A DNA stretch of 41,705 bases from Jimgerdemannia flammicorona (taxonomy: Eukaryota), in the NCBI GenBank assembly GCA_003990765.1, contig RBNJ01000103.1, positions 1-41,705 on the forward strand, in the 5' to 3' direction. Shown here piece after piece: positions 7,571 to 36,587 of the stretch. Position 1 is the stretch's first letter. Every line of letters begins with the position of its first letter. Position numbers and translations under genes: made by a program. The notes below the pieces were generated by a model. The model was given only the letters and a program-made list of their open reading frames with translations, was not told the DNA's origin and ran no database searches.

Positions 7571-7685
7571 TCATTTGGAGAGTACATTCCAATACCATGA
7601 GGGCATCAGCCACTTGGTACATATCCATCTTCGATCATCTTGTAGAATTGTTCTTCTTTGCTCATGGTAGGTTGGGCTGGGGCTT

Positions 7686-8100
7686 TGTTTGATGAGCTAA
7701 ATCCTTTGGATCCTCGGATGGTGGGCAGTAGTTCAGGGACTTCCTTGACTGTCAGAGTTGACTCGATTTTTTCGAATAGGATCTGGGCAATGCAGAAACC
7801 AATAGGGATCTTGAAGGGTATCCAACTGTGGTTTCGGATGAGGACAATAATTTTGCCTGTATAATCTTCGTCAATGACTCCTCCTTCTACTGAGAGTCCT
7901 TTCAGTGCTAGGCTGCTGTGACAGCATATTCTTCCAACATGTCCTTCAGGGATTTGGATACTGATTCCTGTGTAGACTTGTTTGACTTCTCAGTTGAAAA
8001 CTATAGCTTCTTCAGCTGCATACAGGTCATATACAGCTGCTTTTTGACTTTCTTTGGTTGGGGCCTTAGCAGTTTGTCTTAACTTGACAAAGTCTAGTAT
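7686..8100 (-). pseudogene. dut: dUTPase domain between Gag zinc knuckle and protease
   Basis: Translates ILDFVKLRQTAKAPTKESQKAAVYDLYAAE...TGISIQIPEGHVGRICCHSSLALKGLSVEGGVIDEDYTGKI...IGFCIAQILF...RGSKGFSSS. All five trimeric dUTPase motifs are recognisable; one internal TGA. Confidence 0.92.
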
Positions 8101-22260: not shown

Positions 22261-23117
22261 CGAACTCCCTCTTCTGTAGGTATTGTCACGGTTGTCGAGG
22301 GCATCTGAGTTGCGATTAGCAACATGTACTTAAGTGCCATTGAGTTTTATGCTGTAGTTATGCGCCACATAGATCACAACCCTTGTGATGACCTTGATGC
22401 CGATAATGCCACCTTTGCCATGCGTGATGTTGGTCTTTTCACTGACAGGTGCTCATACTCTGGCTCGATCATGCGAGAGGTGACATGTGGCAGCTGTAAA
22501 GAACACGATGGCCGTGTGGCTTACGGCCAGGTAGGGCTCAGAGAAAAGAAGTTTCTGGTTATTGACGTGTGAAAAGGAAACCAGAGATGGTGGCGGTGGG
22601 TTTCATGGAAGTTGTCATGGATTGTCAATAAATTCCAATTGTTCAGCAAATTACATTAATGCTATTCTACTTTGGACGCAGTTACGATTTTCAGAATCAT
22701 TGCGTCTGCATGCTCTCAGTTCAACACCTTATGCTCATGAGCACTTGTTGGAATATTGACTCTACCTTGTTGAACTTATATACCTTTTTTACATTGCCAT
22801 CAGCCAGTACATGCCTTGCTAAGAGCACGAAATTTGCAAAGATGCAGACAATCTCAAAGTTCTCAGGAACCAATATCTGATAGAGGAGGGTTTGAAGTCA
22901 TCAAGTATCAAGAGTTGATTAAGGAGTGTCAAATTATCATCATTATTATATTTTTTTCATCATACTCATCATCTGCACTCTATCTGAGTCCTGAGTGTTC
23001 ACTTTTTTCATCTTATTTTCATCACAGTTGATTAAGTTAGAGATCAAATCACTTAATTTATTATTAATGATATTATAATATATTAGTTCAATAAAGGCAA
23101 ATTTCAAGAGGAAGCAA

Positions 23118-23470
23118 TGTAGATTGGCTTGAGCTCTTAGTTACTTTATCAAAAGTAACAAAATGTTCAATAGTTTATATTAGATGAAGTATTAGAATTA
23201 TTTTAAATAGATAAAGTCTTCTTCTTAGTACTTGGTGACAAATTATCAGGCTTGGTTTTGATAAGAGAACTGAAGTTAAATCTGATAAAAAAAGCTTAAA
23301 ATCTCTTTAACAATAGCTCTTAAGTAGATATTTCTCCTAAGTATTACAATCAGTTCTTTTAGATCAAGTGACATTTAGTAGATATATCTCTAAAAGTATA
23401 TTATAGACAGACTTGTCTTTTGCTTTTAATTTAGATTATAGACTGAGATTTATTTACTTATATCTTTAAA
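23118..23470 (+). mobile_element. LTR-like fragment related to the LTR starting at 28670 (opposite strand)
   Basis: TGTAGATTGGCTTGAGCTCTTAGTTACTTTATCAAAAGTAACAAAATGTTC matches the reverse complement of ~28619-28670. Right boundary uncertain. Confidence 0.55.
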
Positions 23471-23475
23471 ATATT

Positions 23476-26400
23476 TCAAGATCTATAATTTAAGAGAAGA
23501 CATCCTAACTCTCATCAGACATACAACTCACCAAGAATGGGTAGAAGATGTCACCAATTTTATAGAAGCCCTAGACCTTACAGGAAAAAGAGGAATTAAT
23601 TATCTCTAAGATCTTTCTACTGAAGCCAGATAGCTGTACCTCAACCTCAGAGCTTGAAGACTTCCTACCAGTGGAGCTTTAGCCCAAGAATAGCCTGAAC
23701 TCAGCAAGAACGTTGCTCAGTATATTCTGCTACATCCAAAGGCCAAACTTCTAACCAAAGCTCACCAAGATGATATATAGTAAGACCTCTACAGTCTGGA
23801 GAATGAACCCATCAAGCCTGGAAGAACATTAGTGTTCAGAACTAGACTAGCCATATAGCTACCCAAAGAAACTTATATCTAACTAACCTCAAGGTCTAGA
23901 CTTGTCAGACAAAGAGTAACTATAGAAGGAGAAACTATAGATCCAGAATACACAAGTGAAATCAAGATTATCTTATTTAATAGTAGTATAGAATAGTACT
24001 GAATTCTTAGAAAATAAAAGATTATACAAGCAGTCTTTATAAAAGTCATGAGCTTTCAATTATAAGAAGTCTCCAAACTGACTGAAGGAACAAGATAAGC
24101 TAAAGAATTTGAAAGCTCAGATAAGAAGGAAGTATATCTTTTTCAGGTTAATTATCTCAAGAAGAATATTCCTTAGCAAGTATATTGTCAATCAGTCAAA
24201 CTGTACAAGAATCTTATCCTGGAGCCCAAAGAGCAAATTATTCTTGAAATCTTTGCACCATCTGACCCCAGAAATCTCTTCTTTAAATTCAATAAAGATA
24301 TCTCAAATCTGGATATTGGAGGTCATACATTTCCTGATAAGATGAATCCAGTACACTTCTGAGCAACTAACCAGAGCTAGAAAAGTATTATCTTGCCAAA
24401 AGAAACCATCATAGGATATCAGTGCCCTTCCTCAACTGAACCCATAGAGAAGTCTATGAGCTAAACTTATTGAGAAATAGCAAAAGGTCTCAGAAGAAAA
24501 GAAAGGCCCCTCTGTAACCCAGGAGACAGTAAAGCCTTCCATCAATATTGGAGAAGAATTGATACCTCAGTAATAGTAACAACTAGTAGAACTCCTCAAT
24601 AAATATCAAGATATCTTCACTACTAATTATAGTAATCTGCTATATAGCTCATCATACTACTATATTATAAATACAGAAAATGCAACACCCATTTGATAGA
24701 ATCTCTATAAAATACCCCACTACCTAAAGATATTCAAAAAGGAATATATTTAAGAACTCTTAGACAATAGAGTCATCTGACCCTCAACCAGCTCTTAGGC
24801 CAGCCCTACACTTATTATACTAAAGAAAGGAGGATAGAGACTCTGTGTAGACTATAGGAAACTCAATTTAGTCATCAAGAAGAATACCTATTCTTTGCCC
24901 TGAATTGATGACCTCTTGGACCAGTTACAAGATACCAGATACTTCAGCAGTATGGATCTTTTCACAGGATTCTATAAGATCTCCATGAATCTCAAAGATA
25001 TTTAAAAGACAGTCTTCTTAGCTCTAGAAAAACTGTTTGAATACCTCTGAATGCCCTTTAGACTTTGCAATATACCTCTCACCTTCCAGAGAATAATGAA
25101 CTCAATCTATGGCCCACTGATTTACTACTTCTAATTGTATATATAGATGATTCAAACATATATTTAGCTAATTTCGAGAAACACTTACATCACCTAAAAG
25201 AATTCTTTAAGCTCATCTATAAGAATCACCTAGACTCAATACCAAGAAATACTACTTTGGAAAACAGAAACTTAAATTTCTTGGATTCATAATTTCAAAA
25301 GAAGAAACTCATACAGACTCAAAGAAAATAAAGAAGATCAACAATTGGCTAGTACCCAAGACCCCAAAGGAAATACTATCATTCCTAATACTAGTATCCT
25401 ACTATAGAAGATTTATCAAAGACTTTGTCTAAATTGCTGCTCTAATCCAAATCCTTCTCAAGAAGTCTCTTACAAATAGACAGAATTATAAGAGAAAGCC
25501 TTCAAAGAACTCAAGTACTGTATGACTATAGCACCAATCCTTATTTCGCCCAATTTACAAAAGCCATTTATCTTGTATATAGATGCTTCTAAAGATGGTC
25601 TTAGAGTAGTTCTAGCCCAGAAAGGACCTGATCAACAATACTATGCGATAGCTTATACAAGTCAAGCAACCAATTAGCAGCAAACCAACTATAGTAGCAC
25701 CAAACTGAAATATCTTACAGTCATATATATAGTTACTCTGTTAAAGCATTATTTTATCAGAAAAAGATTCACTCTAATAACTGACCATGCAGTCTGCAAA
25801 TGGCTATTCAACTGTAAGAACCCCATCAGAATCCTAGCCCATGAATTCATATCCTTCAGAATTACACAATCACCATTATTTACAAAGTAGAGAAAGCTCA
25901 CAACAATGTTGATGTCTTTTCTGCCAACTCTAATGAATCAGAAGAAGAGTGTACTGAAAAGGAAACCTCAGACCATCAGAGTACAAGAAGATCTCATCTA
26001 GAAAGAATACCAGAAAACCTATCAAGGATAGGTGAATATAGAAGAAAAGCTGTAAATAATATACCAACATTGGCCCAATCTCAGAATATAAGTCTGGAAT
26101 ATACTCAAGAAATGTGATATCTGCCAGAAGTACCAAAGAAGGAAGAACCATTAAGCACCACTATAACCAATCATATGTACCATCAGACAGCATCTTTCAG
26201 AGATAGAGAGTAGATGTAATTGGACCTTTACTCATTATACCAAGAAGAAATAAGTATATTCTTATATTTGTGAAATATCTAACCAAGTGGCCTAAAGCTT
26301 TTCCAATAGAAATCACAGATGACTTGACTATTATAGACCTCTTCTATAGACTCACACTCAGATATAGACCCCCAGAAGAACTTATCTCTAATTGAGGCAC

Positions 26401-28049
26401 AGAATTCATCAATAATATAATCATAAGTTATACCTAAATTTACAAAATTCATCTCAAATAGACCCCATTATACTGCTCTCAGACCAATGGTATAATAGAA
26501 TAAATGAATCAGACCATTAAAAAAGATCAATTCTATCAACTAGGATCTCTGCTTATTTGAGATCCTATGGGAAATTCAGAATATCCCTACTATCTCTATC
26601 AAACAAAAGCCCTTCAAAATGATATTTGCTAAGAAAACCAGAACTACTAATGATGAGAACCTCAGAGATCTCTTCAAAAAGACAGAATAGTTATATAATT
26701 AAGTATGAGTTCAGATTATCAAGACCCAAGAAAGACAAAAGAAATATTATAATTAGAAGTAGAAGAATCAGAAGATCAAGATTGGAGATCAAGTACTAGT
26801 TTGGAGAAGTATAATTGAAACCAACTTTGCTACCAAACTGGAGTCCAAATGGGAAGGACCTTATCTTGTACACAATATTAGAACAACTAGTATCTATTTA
26901 AGAAATATAGATGGATGAAGTTTGAGGATACCAGTATACATCAACTACCTTAAGATATATCTCTCTCTATATTATAAACTAGACAATTGACCAGCATCTC
27001 CAGACTCTTGTTCTGAGCTCATTTCAATTACTTTCAGTTCCCCTCTCACAATTTCACTAAGCCAATAAAAACTCCCTCCAACAAATCCAGACCCATCAGG
27101 AGAATCTCACCTTAGTCAGACATATACTGTAAGTCTACCAGCTATAGGCCTACTATATGTATAATTGGAGAGCAATTGTAGAACCTTCTAACTTCAGATA
27201 TTAGAAACTCCACTGGTCTGATCTGGAAAAACACCACTACTATAGATAGATTATATATAATCTATAAAAAAAACACCCCAGCACTGATACAGGCACAGTT
27301 CTTTCTGAATGATATATAACAAATAAATCCTACCATCTACTTGAGTATTATCAACCATGTTGAAATCCTATTCTCAGAGAAAGAAGAAGAACCTATTAAA
27401 TAGAGTAACTCTGATCCAAATGAAGATAATAGTTCAGATATTGATACCAAAGATGCTTATATATATTGAGATGATAACTAAAGAATAGTCTGAGAACAGA
27501 CTATCCTTTAGTGGGGACTGATGTGACAAGCAGCAGAATTGTACTGCTGAAATCATAAATTAGCCACATACTATATTTAGTACACTAAGCAACTAAGACT
27601 ACTTTACTTTGCCACCCTATATAATTAGCCAGAGATACTAGAAACAGTATATCTATATTGGTCCAGTATACTATGTCAGTACACTATTCTGTTCATTATA
27701 TTGTACTATTCAGGAACACTTACTATAGATAGAAATCTATAATTAGCTATATAGTAACCAGTAGTAACCACAACTATATAAAATATCCCAGAGATAAGAG
27801 TGAATAAACCTCAGTCTGAAAATCAAAAGCAAAAGTCAATTATCTGATATACTTAGGAAGAGAAACCTGTCAACAAGCTACTGCCAAGAAGTTGTGAGCT
27901 ATTTTCCACTCCAGTCCACTTTCTGATACAAAGAAGAGTCTGTTATGTTTAGGTTCACTTGCCAGATAAGCCTGAAGAGAGCTCAAGTTATTTAAGAAGT
28001 CAATACTATCTGTTGTACAGAGGAAACCCACAATAGGAATCTTGTCACA
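23476..28049 (+). mobile_element. 5'-truncated, heavily mutated Ty3/gypsy element: dUTPase-RT-RH-IN(GPY)-PPT-3'LTR
   Basis: dUTPase ~23710-24123 (SRSRLVR, GETIDPEYTSEI). RT RLCVDYRKLN, LP*IDDLLD, VYIDD. RNase H LYIDASKDGL, LITDH. Integrase VDVIGPL, YLTKWPKAFP, QTNG, KWEGPY. PPT AGTGGGGACTGA at ~27510-27521. No chromodomain seen. Confidence 0.93.
27522..28049 (+). repeat. 3' LTR (528 bp) of the dUTPase-RT element
   Basis: TGTGACAAG...CTTGTCACA perfect 9-bp inverted termini, preceded by a PPT. TATATAAAA at ~27775. Confidence 0.85.
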
Positions 28050-29400
28050 AAGTCAGTCTTCTGATACAACTTCACAGTGGAGCCAGTCCATCTGATTTAA
28101 CCCTGCATAAATGAAGTCAGTCTCGACATAACTTTGCCAAGAATCTGCATCATCCAAGTTATTTCCCAGAAACCCACCAATTCAGAAAGAATCCACATCA
28201 TCTGAGTTATCTGCTATTTTTGAGTTATCTGCCATATTCAAGAAGCCTGCCAATTCAGGAAGAATCCATGACATCCGGGTTATCCGTGTCATCCAAGTTA
28301 TCTGAGTTATCAAGTTATCTGATATTCCCAGAAGAGTCTGCCGATTCAGGAGAATCTACGCCAAACCAAGTTATCTGAGTTATCTGCCAAATTGAGTTCC
28401 CTGCCAAATGCCAAGATCATCACACAGAAATTGCATAAGGAGCTAAACAAGATCGTCACGCAGAAATCACATACTTTTGGAGATCATCATGCTATACAAG
28501 GATCGTCAACTACATACATGCAAATCATTGCTCACACCCAAGTACCCATCTCAATAAGAAAATCGACCATTGTATCCAGATTGACTATTATACCAGTAAA
28601 CACCAACAAGGAATCTTAGAACATTTTGTTGCTTTTTGACAAAGTAACTGGGGGCTCAAGCCAAACTACATCAACCCCCAACCTTGTAATTTGTCTCTAT
28701 TGAGCTGGGCACATTACAGTATTAATACTATAAAAAATGCAGGCATTTCAAGCACTATCTCTATAGGTGCTGTGGGTGAGTCTTTCTCCAATATTATAAT
28801 AGGTAAGAAACTCTTCTCTGAGATAGTTCTGATCATTCCATCATTTATACCAGAGGAGGGTAGTGATAAACTCATAGGTGTCAGAATTTTCTATCATTTA
28901 TGGCTGGTCTGAAACTTAGTGGTTGATGGTATAGACTCCTTCATTCTTGATGATTTCAATGATACAGTTGATCTGAGAGGTATTGTATATTATTGTAAGA
29001 GTAGTAGAGATTATAGAGTAAGTATAGTTATTTTAGGGGTAATTATACTATGGTTGATGACTGAACTAAACAGGTTTTCATTATTTGCTAACTAAGTCTT
29101 GATCTTCAGTGAATTACTAGAGGTCATGCTGATGTTTGTAAGTATTGAGTAATTCATCAGTATTTGGCGGAAGGTATTCTTTGTATTTCCAGATAGAGTC
29201 CCAATTAGGGTATCCTTTCTATTTGATCAGATAGTATCTAGTTAGTTTTAGTGATCATCTATATCTTCTTCTTGATATTGTAGGATTTCTTCTACTTTAA
29301 ATTTAATATAGTCTGTGAACTTTACTGGGTCTAGGAGTGATACTGTTTGTCCTTCAAAGGGGTTGGATGTATACTGTCATAGTAGAGATATATAGAACAT
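28050..29400 (-). mobile_element. 3' end of another chromovirus (chromodomain, PPT, partial LTR 28050-28670 with internal GAGTTATCTG repeats)
   Basis: NPFEGQTVSLLDPV...FKVEEILQY and YLIK*KGYPNWDSIW at ~29190-29370. PPT TGGGGGTTGA (28671-28680), then TGTAG at 28670. Confidence 0.8.
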
Positions 29401-29546
29401 ATCTTTCCCCACCGGAAAAGAAAATGAAAAAAAAATGATATCAGTAAGAAGACATCCGTGTACATGTTCCGGAGATAAATGGCATCGATCTCTAAACCCC
29501 TCTCAAAAGGGAACCTCCTGCGGATTTTAGCATTACGCAAACCCAC

Positions 29547-29762
29547 CTTAAAACAATCCGGACACATAAGCCTACTCGTTAACTGTCCATGGAACAGGTC
29601 GACAATGATTGAGTCGAACCTGGCTTTATGGTACTTCCAGCTGATCCTAACGACCTCGGCGTCTGGCCAGCCGTCGAAGATGGACCATTCGATGTAGGGC
29701 ATCTTAATAATGCGATCTAGGTCTTCGTGAAGACCGTCCAGCAAGAAACCCCGTAGCTCCTG
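29547..29762 (-). pseudogene. Isolated 216-nt exon of a USP4/11/15 (Ubp12)-like deubiquitinase catalytic domain
   Basis: ttcag|QELRGFLLDGLHEDLDRIIKMPYIE...DSIIVDLFHGQLTSRLMCPDCFK|gtgggt. Neither the Cys box nor the His box is present in the window. Confidence 0.85.
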
Positions 29763-29984
29763 CTGAAAGGTGAGGATGGAAGAATGGCAGAGAGATGTGA
29801 AAGGGGGCGCTTCTTGTAGTACTTTACGCGCATAATATTCTTGATGAAAAAACGGTTTTCCTCAAAAATAATAAATAATAACAATACAATTCCCATCTGG
29901 TTCCTTCTCACCCATTGTAGAGTCCATTATTACCCAGCAACCTACCATAAACTCCCTAGGACAGTTCACACGGTTCCAACATAC

Positions 29985-31810
29985 TTCGGAGATTCAGCGT
30001 AGTCAGTGTTTTATTCTGCTTCAGAGACTCGCTCAGTGAGCGTCCTCCACCAGAGCTGACCTTATTACCTTAGATTGCACAAGGGATGGATAGACGAGCA
30101 AACACTCAAAGATCGTAAGCTGGAGCCCATCACACCGCTGCAAATAACAACTCACACAGTTCAAATATACCTCGGAGATTCAGTGTGGTCAGCATCATGT
30201 TCTGCTTCAAAGATTCGCCCAGTGCATGTCCTACCTCAGAGCCAGTCTTATTGTCTGAAGACACAAGGGATCGAAGGATGAGCAAATACACAAAAAATCA
30301 CGAGCTGGAACCCATCAGCAATCAACAATTCGCACAGTTCTAACATACATGAGAGATCCAGCGTGGTCAGTGTCGTGTTCTGCTTCAGAGACTCGCCCAG
30401 TGCGCGTCCTCCCTCATCACCAATCCCATTCCCTTATATGAATAAACACGCAAAGTTCATGAGCTGTAACACATTACGTAGCTGCAAACAGCAGTTCTAA
30501 TGATTCAAACATACAAGAGAAATCCAACGTGGTCAGCGTCGTGTTCTGCATCAGAGCCTCGCCCAGTGCGAGTCCTCCCTCGTCGCCGATCTCATTGCCT
30601 TAAAATGCACAGGGATGGATGGATGAGTAAATACACAAAGATCATGAGCTGGAACCCATCATGCAGCTACAAAAAGCCATTCCCACAGTTCAAACATACC
30701 AAAAAGATTCAGAGTGGTCAGCGTTGTGTTCTGCTTCAGACACTCGACCAGTGCGCGTCCTCCCATGTCGCCGATCTCATTACCTTAAAATACACAGGGG
30801 GTTTGTGGATGAGTAAACATGCAAAGTCAGTATGCCGGAAGCCATCTCGCAGCTGTAAATAGAAGTTCACACAGTTCAAATACAAGAGAGATCCAATGTG
30901 GTCAGTGTCGTGTTGTGCTTCAGAGACTTGCCCAGTGCGCGTCCTCCCTCGTCGCCAATCATATTTACTTAACAGGATGAGTAAATAGGTAGAGGTAGTG
31001 AGCTTGAACCCATCATGCAGTTGCAAACAGCAGTACACATGGTTCAAACATACTAAAGAGATTCAGCGTGGTCAGCGTCGTGTTCTGCGTCAGAGACCCG
31101 CCCAGTGCGCGTCCTCCCTGAGGGCCGATAATATTGTCTGAAATGCACAATGGATGATGAGAAAACATGCGAAGATCATGAGTTAGAACCCATCACTCAG
31201 CTGCAAACAGTAGTTTACAAAGGTGCAAAGGGGAAACATACACGAGATATTAATCGTGGTCAGCGTCGTGTTCTGCCTCAGAGACTCTTCCCAGTGCGCG
31301 TCCTCCCTCATCACCGATCCCATTCACTTAAAATGCACAGGGAATGGATAGATGAACAGACACGTAACGATCGTGAGATGGAACTCGTCATGCAGCTGCA
31401 AACAGTAGTTCACACGCTTCAAACATACTCGAGAGATTCAGTGTGGTCAGCGTCATGTTCTGCCTCAGAGACTCGCCCAGTGCCTCGCCACCAATCGAGC
31501 TGAAACCCATCACGCAACTGCCAACAGCAGTTCATACAGTTCAAACATACCAAAGAGATTCAGCGTGTCAGTTTCGTGTTCTGCTTCAGATACTCGCATA
31601 GTACGCGTCCTCGCTCGTCGCCGATCCCTTTCCTTTAGAATGTACCGGAGATGGATGGATAAGCATACACACAAATTTCCTCAGCTGCGACCTATGATGC
31701 AGCGCAAATAGCAGCATAAATAGTTCAAACATACCTTGGAGGTCAGCATCGTGTTCTGCTTCAGATACTCACCCAGTGCGCGTCCTTCCTCAGAGATGAT
31801 CTTATTTTCC
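29985..31810 (-). repeat. Tandem array of 11 intron+exon units, each exon one 28-aa RNI/NLRC3-type LRR
   Basis: Intact 84-nt AG|...|GT exons at 31054-31137, 30884-30967, 30700-30783, 30515-30598, 30349-30432, 30171-30254 and 29985-30068 (consensus NxIGDEGGRALGESLKQNTTLTTLxLx). Homologous 82-102-nt introns. The four units nearest the kinase carry indels. Confidence 0.95.
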
Positions 31811-33236
31811 GGGATTCAAGTACTACCCGGAACTGCTGGTTCTCGCGAGAGTGCCATGCTACCCAATCCATCCACCACAACGGCTGCGTCCTCTCTGACG
31901 TTTTCTTTTTGCTCAACTTCAGCCTCCTCCAACAGTTCCGTCAGTGCTCCCAACCGCGTCAGTGCTCCCAACCGTGTCAGTACCTCGACCACCTTTGGCC
32001 TCAGGGCAGGATCGCCATCCCAACACTGGGTGTAGAGCTCAATGTATTCCTTTGGCGTGCTCTCGATAGTATCCTCCGCATCCCCTGGCAGATGTGCATG
32101 GGAGTCATGAAATCGGCATGCGGGAAGGGAAGGGCCCCATCCGCGCTGATCTCCCAAAAGATTACGCCCAGGCTGTAGACATCTCCGCGCACGTCGTGTT
32201 TAACCTTCGGGTTCCAAATGCGCTCAGGCGACCTTTGTGTTTGTCGGGGAAGCAAAATTGGATGGATAATTACGTATGGGACGTTGTGTATAGAAAATAA
32301 AACGAAAAACATGTCTTGGAGGAAAAATATTTGGTATATATACATATGGCACGCGTCCTTCAACAGGAAGCTTCGAAGTTTCGGCTGATGCCAGCCGGCT
32401 CAGGCCAAAGTCTGCAATGAGCGCCCTTCTCGTGGCATTGATGCTACCAAGTACGTTGCCACTAAATCAGTCACCAAGGCACAAGGTTTTTAAAAAATAA
32501 ATACCACACATGAACAAGAGATATTCACAGAATGTTACCACTGTGCAAATCGTGGTGTATCACGTTTCCATCGTGTATGAAATCGAGCGCTTCAGTGATT
32601 TGGTATGCGAGCCTCAGCCTATCTCCCCAGGTCAGCCGGCCCTTGTTGATCTTAAGATAATCTGCAAGGGAGCCCTGCTCAGCGTATTTCATTACCAAGA
32701 AATACGAGTTCATCATGAGATCTGCATTTTGTGGATACCATTTGGTTGATTATGGTGTAAAATTATATGAGCCTTGAGAAGAGAAGAAGGAAATCAATCT
32801 CCAATCCATACCTCGTGATACACCATAGCATCTTGCAACGAAGTCTTCGTCGTCCACCTTGCGGAGAATTTGCAGCTACGACAAAGTTCAACTAACGTGA
32901 GTCTCAACGTTGTCCGTTGCGTGTTCCAACTTAAAGAAACGCACAGCTACGTAATTACCTCCTTTACAAAGATTTGTACCCCGCTAGATCGCACTCGACA
33001 ATGTTCAAGTATTTGAGGGCGTATTGCTTTTTGCGCTTTATGCTTGTAACACGGTAAATAGCGCCAGATCTCCCTTGAGCGATAAAGACGGGTTTGTTGA
33101 ACTCGTTCAAGGGGAAGAGGTCGATTCGATTTTCGTCAATGGCAGCCTGAAGTCAATCCATAATGGATAATCGGTCAGAGGTCACTAACGGAAAGATGAG
33201 GGAGACAATGAAAGGGACTCGATCAAACGCAGACAT
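29985..33236 (-). pseudogene. Tyrosine-kinase-like protein kinase fused to RNI-type LRRs; multiple lesions
   Basis: Spliced kinase motifs IAQGRSGAIY, YALK, FVKE|LQIL, LVMKYAEQGSL, IHHDLHSGNIL|INATRRALIADFGLS, SPE, DVYSLGVIFWEI, CWDGDPALRP. The kinase frame runs through one TGA (31816) into the first LRR. Stop at 33153; frameshifts near 32985 and 32077. Confidence 0.88.
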
Positions 33237-33679: not shown

Positions 33680-36072
33680 TTATTTTCTACATATTATCTT
33701 GTTCTTCTTAGAGGGAGTCTGCACACAGTCTTCGATACAAAACAGTTGAGACTTTCGTTTCTTTACCCCTACGGCCTGCAGTTCTTGCAGTTGACTATCT
33801 TCATTATCATGGTTTTCGGCAGATTCAACGATGTCGACGACCTCCTTAACGATGGCCTATCATTTGAAATGCAGATTATGATGAAAATCTATTTCACAAG
33901 CGTTACGTATTTCGTATGAACCATTCAATCTGGGTGTTTACCTTGGCTTTCCATATCAACGCCAGGAAAGGTACCACCTGTTGACCAAATAATCCAACGG
34001 TCTGCGGAATAGTATATATTGGGCTCCTCACCACCCGGCACACATAACCCCTTGGAGAATCTAATCTCAACAGCAAAACATTCAACTCTGTTGAGAAGTA
34101 TAATAATATCGACAATGTTGATTAGCTAGCGCTTAAACGAAGTGCTGCGTCATGAGTACTCAAGAAAGATATGTTCTACTAACCGGAAAATATCCAACCA
34201 ATCACCTGTAACCTTCTCACTTTCTCAACGTCCCACTTCACCGCATTACACAGATTGACAAACATGTCCTTCTGCATCTTGGGTGCTTTTAATCCCCGTT
34301 CCTTCAGTATCTTAGTACCATTCTCTCCCTCCCATTCTTTACCCGCTTCTCCATTTCCATACTCATTGTGATGTTTTCTGATAATGAGGTCGCCGCGTCT
34401 ACCCATCATCTTATGTGCCACCTGCATCAAGCCCGAAACACTGCGTGTTCTGTTTTTCCGGTACGACGAAGTAAAACTCGATGCTTCGCCACGTACACTA
34501 TACATATCTTGTAAATTGAGAAAACACCGATCGATGACATGCCAGCAATGCATAAGGGTAGTGAATTTCTAAATGCCCAGTGACCAAATTACCGCCTTCA
34601 TATTCTTGCACCCTAATAATTGATTGTTAATGGTATTGAGTCCATTATTTCATATCAAGGGAGTCACATGTCGTTAAACAAGTGATTTTCAAAATATAAA
34701 AATCTCCGCAGACGACAATACAGAAGAAAGAAAGAAAACCTTACAAATTGTGAACAGAATTCTTGATCCAGTCGTGATCAAAGTGATATTCCCTTCTAAA
34801 ATTAGCCCCTTCCCAATCTTGAACCATGGATAGTTGTGATCTTAATTCCTCGATAGAACTCTGTCAAAGGTAAGTAAGAAAGTCAGCATCGTAATCCTAT
34901 GAGCAATAGAATAATCCCACTTTTCTTAGAGGACATCTTACTTTGCGGAAGCTGTTCATATATTTCATTAAATCTATCGGGATATCTGGTAGTGACTTTG
35001 TATCGGTCTCCTCAATCTCAGTGAGCTCTCCCTCCGTGAACACACCATGTGCAATGTAACTCGTGTCGTCCGGGTCAACGATGAATGACTGAGACAAGCT
35101 AAGGAGGTAAAAAAATTGTGAGTACGATGTAAATACGAATAAAACTCAAATGGAAAGTTGAACATCTACATACTGTTCCGATTTGCATCGTCTTGCATAT
35201 TCAAATAACGCATCCTCGACAACCTTTCCAGTTGACAACTTCCACTTCTGACTGTCATTCATTCTACGAAATACCTCTTCGACTTCTTTCCACGTACTGG
35301 ATCCAGCTGCATATATCCCTTCATCCTCACTTTCCTCTTTGCTTTCCCCTTCAGCCACACTTTCATTTTCTGTAAAGACTTCTCGTTCTTTTTTTTCATC
35401 GTCGGCGAAAATATCTGGTATTTCATCTTGATAAACCGTTGTTGGAGATTCATCCCCTGGTAACATCGTTCTAGGGCTCCTAATCTCGGATATGAATTCA
35501 TTTGTAGTCTTCTGGCTCATAGCAATGTGTTCGGAATGGATGTTCGATTCAATAACGTTCTTATGTTGACTCTACATAGTGGAAATTCTGAGTTATTATT
35601 GAACGCAAGATCAAAAGAACCGATGTATGGAAATATATAATGAAAATACGTAGTTCTCACCCGTCGCTGCTCTAAAATGAATAATGAATTCTTCGTCAGC
35701 TCTCTTTCCTCATTAATCATCATTTGGTTCCAATATCGTTCTGCATGTTTTGAATTGGTCATCCGCTCGAACCTTCCAAGGAGCCTCGTTGATTTTTGTT
35801 TGACCAGCGGATCGTCCGAGGCAGACAGCTTTTGCAGGTATTGTCGCAGATCGTCTTCCGCGTCTTGGCGCAACCTACTATTACTCCAGCCTTTGTACTT
35901 GTAAAATTTGACGGCGGAGAATTGCCTCAAAAAGGTCCGTATATCCTAATTATATTATGGTTATGAGATAATATATATATATGAGACATACGCATATCGT
36001 CTTGTTATTGAGCACCACTACGATAACCTCACGAATACTAAGTATCAAAGGGAACCTTACATTTGAAGCCAT
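33680..36072 (-). CDS. Paralog of the 15086-17861 gene (putative PD-(D/E)XK nuclease-fold protein); one apparent +1 frameshift at ~34557
   Basis: Spliced product contains KWKLSTGKVVEDALF, EHLSQSFIVDPDD, DWIKNSVHNL, WHVIDRCF, RGE...RKNRTR...GRRGDLIIR...EYGNGEAGK...KAPKMQKDMF, LDSPRGYVCRV. Four intron positions and phases are shared with the paralog. Confidence 0.8.
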
Positions 36073-36210: not shown

Positions 36211-36587
36211 TATATGATAGCAGTCGGGGTCCCCATCCTGGAGATTATCCCAACCACCATTTTGTGCAAAGTTCCGACTTGGCAACTTCGTCATACAACC
36301 ATTCGAGACTACAAACCGTTGGCCAAACAACCTGCTCTCATGGCGAGTGTATCCGCGGGCTTTACAGAGTGGGATACGCCAAAATAAATTGGAACTTATA
36401 AACATGACTTGTAACCACTATATGATAGCAGTCGGGGTCACCATCCCGGAGATCATCCCAACCACCATTTTGTCGAAGTCACGACTTGGTGACCTAGTCA
36501 TATAGTCATTCGAAACCACAAACCGTTGGCAACACCCACTTTTTGTGGTGTGGATGTATCCGCGGGCTTTACAGGGTGGGATATGCC
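36211..36587. repeat. Diverged direct tandem duplication, period 208 bp
   Basis: TATATGATAGCAGTCGGGGTC...GTATCCGCGGGCTTTACAG.GTGGGATA.GCC at 36211-36380 and 36419-36587. Confidence 0.9.

Follow-up and report, generated by a model that had tools for sequence, protein, structure and literature searches.

One-repeat exon cassettes of a leucine-rich repeat array behind kinase sequence in the fungus Jimgerdemannia flammicorona: probably a decaying, transcribed gene mosaic

In the contig RBNJ01000103.1 of Jimgerdemannia flammicorona (assembly GCA_003990765.1), all 41,705 nucleotides (nt) of which are called the window hereafter, what looks like a ~180-bp satellite lies on the minus strand downstream of protein kinase sequence. 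A first-pass annotation made from the letters alone read it as a hidden array of leucine-rich repeat (LRR) exons that could belong to a combinatorial kinase-LRR receptor. The question raised by this locus is thus whether the exons are real and spliced and, if so, whether the locus can be a receptor gene. As discussed below, the exons are recovered and two of their junctions are found joined in public sequencing contigs, and we read the locus, with a probability of about 60%, as a mosaic copy of a kinase-LRR gene, still transcribed but in decay, within a transposon-rich region. The host, which had been taken to be a fungus, is indeed one; J. flammicorona (Endogonales, Mucoromycota) has a large, repeat-rich genome.

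The minus-strand stretch 31809-29961 consists of 11 homologous units of exon plus intron, ~185 bp each, arranged head to tail. Tandem Repeats Finder gives a period of 185 nt at 30438-31483 (5.7 copies, 72% matches), and blastn with two units as query against the 41.7-kb window gives 11 copies, all on the minus strand and between 31792 and 29961, with no unit found by this search elsewhere in the window or inverted. The apparent satellite is therefore what it had been claimed to be, 11 minus-strand intron-exon units. A search by pattern returned 10 donor-like sites, and at seven consecutive ones an AG lies exactly 84 nt upstream with an open LRR frame between, these being the same seven exons that had been picked out before. 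The seven exons have AG/GT flanks and are in phase 1 at both ends (phase 1-1), with the border at the identical residue in each, the cassette being an 84-nt exon followed by an intron start of the GTATGTTTGAAC type. When E1-E7 are joined by coordinates with a script, the resulting 588 nt give a 195-residue peptide without stops and with a period of 28 residues, identical to the one predicted. The introns between E1 and E7 measure, in order, 86, 100, 101, 82, 94 and 102 nt; all six have GTAT at the start and AAG or CAG at the end, and they are homologous to one another, aligning at 74% identity with gaps ignored. The earlier observation is confirmed in all the details that could be checked. The features of the array are as follows.

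29985..31137, minus strand: seven-exon intact block E1-E7 (from the pattern, the joined frame, the profile alignment and the contig joints)
31137-31054, minus strand: LRR exon E1, 84 nt, phase 1-1, intact
30967-30884, minus strand: LRR exon E2, 84 nt, phase 1-1, intact
30783-30700, minus strand: LRR exon E3, 84 nt, phase 1-1, intact
30598-30515, minus strand: LRR exon E4, 84 nt, phase 1-1, intact
30432-30349, minus strand: LRR exon E5, 84 nt, phase 1-1, intact
30254-30171, minus strand: LRR exon E6, 84 nt, phase 1-1, intact
30068-29985, minus strand: LRR exon E7, 84 nt, phase 1-1, intact
31138..31809, minus strand: four degraded LRR units u1-u4 (from a MAFFT alignment of the 11 units, the length table and blastn)
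~31809-31735, minus strand: exon of u1, with a 10-nt deletion
31632-31551, minus strand: exon of u2, short, with about half of the intron lost
31499-31429, minus strand: exon of u3, 71 nt
31326-31242, minus strand: exon of u4, 85 nt, with a +1 insertion

In the alignment, frame-breaking indels are carried by all four 5' units u1-u4. At the other end, the homology to the array stops (blastn) at ~29961, ~24 nt into the intron of the last unit, and no eighth or terminal exon is found 3' of E7, the array being severed within the intron of unit 7.

The evidence of splicing comes from contigs of two public sequencing runs, X1 and X2, which represent two samples from two studies and whose kind is only guessed as 'RNA?'. 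The joints and contig pieces mentioned here are, for both runs, those among the matches listed, and gaps in the contig cover (31846-33300 and 31176-31309 in X2, 32516-32783 in X1) are not used as evidence. Three joints, each with GT..AG ends on the minus strand, are present in both runs. The joint 30254->30349 skips 94 nt, which are the predicted E5/E6 intron 30255-30348; the joint 30065->30168, with a cut movable by 3, skips 102 nt, which are the predicted E6/E7 intron 30069-30170; and the joint 29762->29946 skips 183 nt. The X1 contig that carries them is 885 nt long and has 0 differences from the window. Because exactly two predicted introns are skipped in the contigs, out of the six internal LRR junctions predicted, the LRR exons are real, and the partial cover together with the intron-skipping contigs makes X1 and X2 fit cDNA. 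Note also that even if the runs were DNA, such contigs would imply an intron-less copy, and thus that the junctions E5/E6 and E6/E7 had once been spliced.

The first-pass annotation had looked to transcripts both for the predicted junctions and for exon-skipping isoforms. The former are found, at E5/E6 and E6/E7; of the latter there is none among the joints listed, where the canonical GT..AG joints connect neighbours in genomic order in both runs. Joints without GT..AG ends or with extra letters between their sides, such as 30590->31058, 30966->30351 (extra letters between) and the 'goes back' 41-63 joints, were considered as isoforms or back-splices and are read instead as contigs of paralogs. 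In addition, one X1 contig piece ends at 31734, adjoining the donor of u1, and its 243 further letters map elsewhere.

The repeats encoded by the exons are of the ribonuclease-inhibitor (RI) type. In the alignment of the seven units (A1), N2, G9, L12, L16, N19, L22 and L25 are invariant, which is the scaffold of the RI-type LRR (Pfam LRR_6, PF13516) with its 28-29-residue period. Used as a profile, A1 picks out 11298 proteins with E<=1e-3 from a set of 1.84 billion representatives. Against the best 40 of 150 profile matches, the joined peptide has an identity of 42-57% (E ~1e-53 to 1e-61), and 39 of these 40 alignments are gapless over 181-195 residues and span all the exon junctions, the remaining one, with P0127, having 205 columns. 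LRR_6 is present in each of the 40 proteins (of the 150 best) that were scanned for domains. The single-exon open reading frames (ORFs) score 11.1-22.3 bits against LRR_6 (E 1.2e-4 to 0.02), below the gathering threshold of 23.4 bits, because the exon border divides the 24-position model at 11/12. The relatives of the LRR units in the PDB are ribonuclease-inhibitor-like and DRC5/TCTE1 LRR proteins. That the exons are chance ORFs within a satellite is ruled out by the gapless database alignments and the spliced contigs.

The kinase sequence on the 5' side of the array, on the same strand, is the following.

31816..33161, minus strand: protein kinase pseudogene of the PK_Tyr_Ser-Thr type (Pfam PF07714 and tblastn)

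The array thus does lie downstream of a kinase, as had been stated, though this kinase is, judged from its sequence, a pseudogene. The domain is present (PF07714 match at 32528-32749, E 1.7e-12), and a tblastn search of the window with the intact 345-aa paralog P0002 as query yields a match broken into five pieces and spread over three frames, the best-scoring piece being 60% identical to P0002. Three lesions are found in it: codon 3 is a stop (33155-33153) where P0002 has W, the catalytic HRD is changed to HHD (R codon at 32554-32552), and a 1-nt frameshift is present in the C-lobe at ~32085-32076. Neither an uninterrupted frame nor an HRD motif, by which an active kinase would be recognized, is therefore present. 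The tail of the kinase runs in the LRR frame up to u1, but the TGA at 31818-31816 intervenes.

Over the 85% that can be aligned, the kinase core ORF has 100% identity to P0001 (RUP48195.1) of J. flammicorona, a 216-residue 'kinase-like domain-containing protein', which is a separate record, ends in the same shifted frame and differs from the window in other residues; the 74-residue kinase core is 76% identical to P0002, the intact 345-residue J. flammicorona kinase. A word-index search gives two J. flammicorona kinases among 6 candidates with the kinase core as query, and nothing among 3072 candidates with the kinase tail. Contigs of X1 lie without any difference over 31734-31870, 31842-32169 and 32959-33195, and so span the stop at codon 3, the frameshift and the TGA; since X1 may be the sample of the assembly, this confirmation of the lesions is not fully independent.

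Two further observations concern the kinase region. At 32076-32396, X1 has contigs at a depth of 30-46 with 4-9 differences over the kinase parts, versus a depth of 3-7 for those matching exactly, and these deeper divergent contigs suggest more strongly expressed paralogous kinases. At 31939-31981, in the C-terminal tail of the kinase, a stretch of 18 nt is tandemly duplicated (2.4 copies, 96% matches), so that six residues recur in frame.

On the 3' side, the following features are needed to understand the transcript.

29946..29984, minus strand: run-on of E7 (contig pieces 29946-30065 and the joint 29762->29946, both runs)
29300..29762, minus strand: fragment of a ubiquitin carboxyl-terminal hydrolase (UCH/USP) (PF00443 and contig pieces)
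29762-29547 and 29402-29300, minus strand: hydrolase exons (contiguous contig pieces across 29762/29946 and 29402/29547), the second extending past the examined stretch

In the contigs E7 passes the unused GT at 29984 and ends at 29946, before a GT, and the TAG at 29958-29956 closes the LRR frame within this run-on. As the array is severed inside its last intron, E7 reads into a stop and is spliced via a cryptic donor to the hydrolase exons. The PF00443 match (E 2.7e-7) covers positions 92-141 of 254 only, and thus not a full domain with Cys and His boxes; the fragment has no upstream Cys-box exon, its frame closes in the second exon, and in the neighbouring ORFs scanned no Pfam match to a further UCH domain is found. 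The X2 allele has a 2-nt deletion in the hydrolase part, at 29566. Remnants of three unrelated genes are thus combined in one chimeric RNA.

For the decaying mosaic copy, we propose the following pathway. Repeated tandem duplication of one ~185-bp module by unequal crossing-over would have built the LRR domain, the module consisting of an 84-nt exon, which encodes one 28-residue RI-type repeat, and an intron of ~100 nt; because each exon is in phase 1 at both ends, the added units keep the frame. The spliceosome would then excise the short GTATGT...AG introns, as found at two junctions, giving a continuous coding sequence for an LRR solenoid. In the present state, with the nonsense codon, the catalytic-loop change and the frameshift in the kinase, and with the TGA and the u1-u4 indels preceding the intact exons, the product would be a chimeric pseudogene transcript rather than a receptor mRNA and would probably be a substrate of nonsense-mediated decay, the seven open exons being a remnant that is not yet eroded.

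It is noted that several observations weigh against this reading. The word depth of the LRR-hydrolase contig in X2 is 64.5, which is not negligible, while one X1 contig (30699-30922) retains the E2/E3 intron, whose donor is a weaker one (GTATTT), and the run type of X1 and X2 is just a guess. The exons E1-E7 are without any indel, are all 84 nt long and keep splice sites and frame, whereas the introns vary from 82 to 102 nt and indels are borne by 4/4 of the upstream exons; the unevenness of the decay may mean that constraint on the seven-exon part lasted longer, or lasts still. Among the exons the mean proportion of nonsynonymous differences (pN, 0.19) is lower than that of synonymous ones (pS, 0.28). 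Moreover, starting at an ATG in u4 (31323), one can read an ORF of 232 codons across E1-E7 as far as the TAG, over eight AG/GT-flanked exons in all.

The same observations form the case for the rival that survives best, according to which E1-E7 with the ATG of u4 encode a working LRR-only protein of ~232 residues, a small adaptor or inhibitor of the RI type rescued from the otherwise dead kinase-LRR gene, with the hydrolase exons as its 3' untranslated region. The ORF from 31323 to 29956, the freedom of E1-E7 from indels and stops as against u1-u4 and the introns, the use of E5/E6 and E6/E7 in two runs at the X2 depth given above, and the excess of pS over pN are all what such a protein would lead one to expect. 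The ATG, however, is owed to the +1 insertion in u4, so that the first 12 residues are out-of-frame LRR sequence; since X1 covers the kinase tail together with u1 (31734-31870), the RNA may start far upstream and contain many earlier ATGs. Spliced introns downstream of a stop codon are a typical decay signal, and at least two lie 3' of this stop. The terminal capping repeat is missing because the array is cut in the intron. The pN/pS difference has also to be set beside the equal variability of the codon positions (14/13/15 variable exon sites) and the nearly equal divergence of exons and introns, which are 77% and, with gaps ignored, 74% identical among themselves. We consider an LRR-only protein unlikely on balance, and keep to the decaying mosaic copy.

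By contrast, the reading of the first-pass annotation, that the locus is a kinase-LRR sensor whose symmetric exons are skipped, duplicated and exchanged to give a combinatorial repertoire, is very improbable. The part of it that stands is the presence of spliced one-repeat exon cassettes 3' of a kinase, and what speaks for the rest is that the exons are symmetric (phase 1-1, 84 nt), that the kinase tail is in frame with u1 and lies with it on one X1 contig piece, that a kinase combined with LRR_6 is known in the Gonapodya protein P0109 (kinase-Sel1-LRR_6), and that contigs which have an 84-nt period and match the exons at 90-95% number in the hundreds. A receptor at this locus, however, would have to come from a dead kinase with three disabling lesions, with the TGA and four broken units placed before the good exons, and from an array that is cut off without a proper 3' end and, after its stop, is spliced onto a foreign hydrolase fragment; the kinase of P0109 is, moreover, only 27% identical to the local kinase family. 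As to shuffling or skipping, the listed canonical joints all keep the genomic order, and no spare units on the reverse strand or within introns and no near-identical units are found in the window by blastn and the pairwise table. Any two of the 11 units are 65-83% identical, and neither close pairs nor higher-order blocks are seen among them. There is no pointer to ongoing shuffling or combinatorial splicing at the locus.

The remaining reading, that the lesions are assembly errors in an intact kinase-LRR gene, has the frameshift's position in a G-rich run in its favour but is the least credible of all, as P0001, deposited separately, shows the same shifted reading while differing elsewhere, at the lesion sites the contigs of X1 do not differ from the window (though X1 may share the assembly's sample), and the independent lesions to be explained away number more than seven, deletions of 10 and 13 nt among them.

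We now consider the family from which such a copy may come. The best-matching named relatives of the joined peptide are from early-diverging fungi, with gapless identities of 51-56%: Mortierella alpina, Haplosporangium, Dissophora, Podila, Linnemannia hyalina, Mortierella sp. GBA30 and Gonapodya sp. When 28 of the 150 best LRR matches were looked up by name, nine were from Mortierellomycotina, one from Gonapodya (chytrid-grade), 13 had no name, and the other five were from a diatom, two rotifers, a coral and an amoeba-associated bacterium; no Jimgerdemannia LRR protein is among these 28. A word-index protein search with an LRR exon as query gave two environmental proteins only, of 19 candidates. 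Among the 40 domain-scanned relatives, NACHT is present in six and a kinase in two. From the domain order of the Gonapodya protein P0109, whose kinase is 27% identical to P0002 itself, kinase-then-LRR_6 can be taken as a real fungal architecture, and no intact Jimgerdemannia kinase-LRR_6 protein was found in the searches made. Two of the relatives may merit attention in their own right, P0104 of Linnemannia hyalina (NACHT-LRR_6) and P0053 of Mortierella sp. GBA30 (ARM-NACHT-LRR_6). Passages of a 2025 survey report the NAIP-like NACHT type in fungi solely with HEAT repeats (PMC12258605).

Paralogs of the array appear to be abundant in the contigs. Over a 4-kb stretch X1 has 296 contigs, 219 of them at 90-95% likeness, and X2 has 178, of which 119 are in that range; the summed word depth over E5 reaches 1e4. 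The 'goes back' joints sum to 84 letters (60+24, 63+21), which is what mRNAs with tandem 28-residue repeats would give. These data suggest many expressed LRR paralogs, which may be those of the fungus. One can go farther and suppose that Endogonales possess a large and highly expressed family of RI-type LRR genes made of 84-nt phase-1 cassettes, some fused to kinase or NACHT domains, and that these serve as intracellular sensors diversified by cassette duplication, exchange and alternative splicing. We regard this as a long shot, less likely still than the LRR-only protein; if it is true, the family would be a fungal counterpart of the modularity of vertebrate NLRC and brown-algal ROCO genes, and the window would hold one dead member of it.

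It is instructive to compare the array with the known systems of this kind. Passages of Hoss et al. 2019 (PMC6642158) describe human NOD/NLRC genes as having one 28-residue RI-type LRR per exon with a fixed border, in-frame skipping being possible, in agreement with the background on 84-nt exons of animal NLR genes that the first-pass annotation had cited. The array resembles them in having one 28-residue RI-type LRR per frame-preserving exon and a border that is constant from repeat to repeat, and the 150 best profile matches include an NLRC3-like protein of a coral (P0008). It differs in that no NACHT is present in the window, the neighbour is a kinase pseudogene, the host is fungal, and the introns are of ~100 nt and still mutually homologous. 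The proposal of shuffling in brown algae had likewise been cited in agreement with the source: passages of Zambounis et al. 2012 (PMC3341825) describe ROCO genes of Ectocarpus in which every LRR has a 72-nt exon to itself, propose shuffling, note inactivated exons nearby, and use spare LRR exons on the opposite strand as the hallmark of shuffling. Here too the likeness lies in repetitive symmetric one-LRR exons, in exons inactivated by indels or stops within the locus, and in a family tied to signalling domains, while the ROCO repeats are 72-nt plant-type ones rather than 84-nt RI-type ones, and the array has no Roc-COR and no opposite-strand or intronic LRR exons, its units being old and evenly diverged. 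The Ectocarpus study has a 2024 follow-up (PMC11378527). With neither NACHT nor Roc-COR, the array belongs to neither NLRC nor ROCO, and the likeness is one of gene architecture: one repeat per exon, symmetric phase, a fixed border, and junctions used in contigs guessed to be RNA.

With the LRR_6 proteins of early-diverging fungi, compared at the protein level, the array shares the repeat type, which in them is fused to signalling domains; none of them is from Jimgerdemannia, and the Gonapodya kinase is distant from the local one, as stated above. With transcribed unitary or mosaic pseudogenes of repeat-rich fungal genomes, the locus shares multiple lesions, unrelated fragments in one spliced RNA and a transposon-rich setting; it differs from them in keeping an unusually long run of seven exons perfectly in frame. 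In the literature searched we found no report of exon-modular LRR genes in fungi, and in that on Endogonales no title on LRR genes.

A metagenome scan gave four loci from 111 pattern matches, none of them a close relative. Two of these, L003 (1-2099) and L002 (170-334), from an unknown eukaryote, contain single 28-residue RI-type LRR units in alternating frames; in the three units read as DNA a GTGAGT donor follows each, and the border precedes that of the window's repeats by a few residues. One LRR per exon seems to be realized here in a second, independent case. The other two, L001 and L004, are arrays without introns and with an 84-nt period. One-LRR-per-exon modularity evidently arises repeatedly.

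The genomic setting agrees with a repeat-rich genome: at 1-12 kb of the window, Ty3/gypsy elements have left degraded pieces on either strand, with protease, reverse transcriptase, RNase H, integrase and chromodomain sequence and, in one copy, a dUTPase domain (7609-7989, minus strand). At 27.2-29.4 kb and 33.2-41.5 kb, 87 ORFs were scanned, and none has a Pfam match at E 0.01 or better. Neither a NACHT or NB-ARC domain nor a Roc domain is present in the window ORFs scanned, which comprised sets of 12, 102 and 87 stretches with a small overlap between scans. Capture of the mosaic by a terminal-inverted-repeat transposon is unsupported, because no inverted repeats were found around it. Other observations on the surroundings are an AT-rich block at 23000-29000 (GC content 31-39%), which adjoins the array (47-50%) and contains short 17-18-nt tandem repeats at 28229-28409, and a tandem duplication at 36211-36587 with 207-208-nt spacing, whose three segments of 33-60 nt are 78-95% identical and without a Pfam domain. 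Two sub-threshold Pfam matches on the minus strand, to the C-terminus of leukotriene A4 hydrolase at 35262-35516 (E 0.0077) and to a fungal fruit-body lectin at 26-286 (E 0.0097), may be further gene fragments or chance.

Finally, we note what the decaying mosaic copy means more generally. It serves as a caution that an open multi-exon frame in a tandem repeat can persist within a transcribed and spliced pseudogene. The still-homologous introns of the array record growth by duplication of exon and intron together, which is a small addition to the knowledge of how repeat receptors arise. What is new here is the lineage, a fungus, the kind of gene architecture being already known: one symmetric exon per LRR is not confined to animals and brown algae and is present also in an early-diverging, mycorrhiza-forming fungus.

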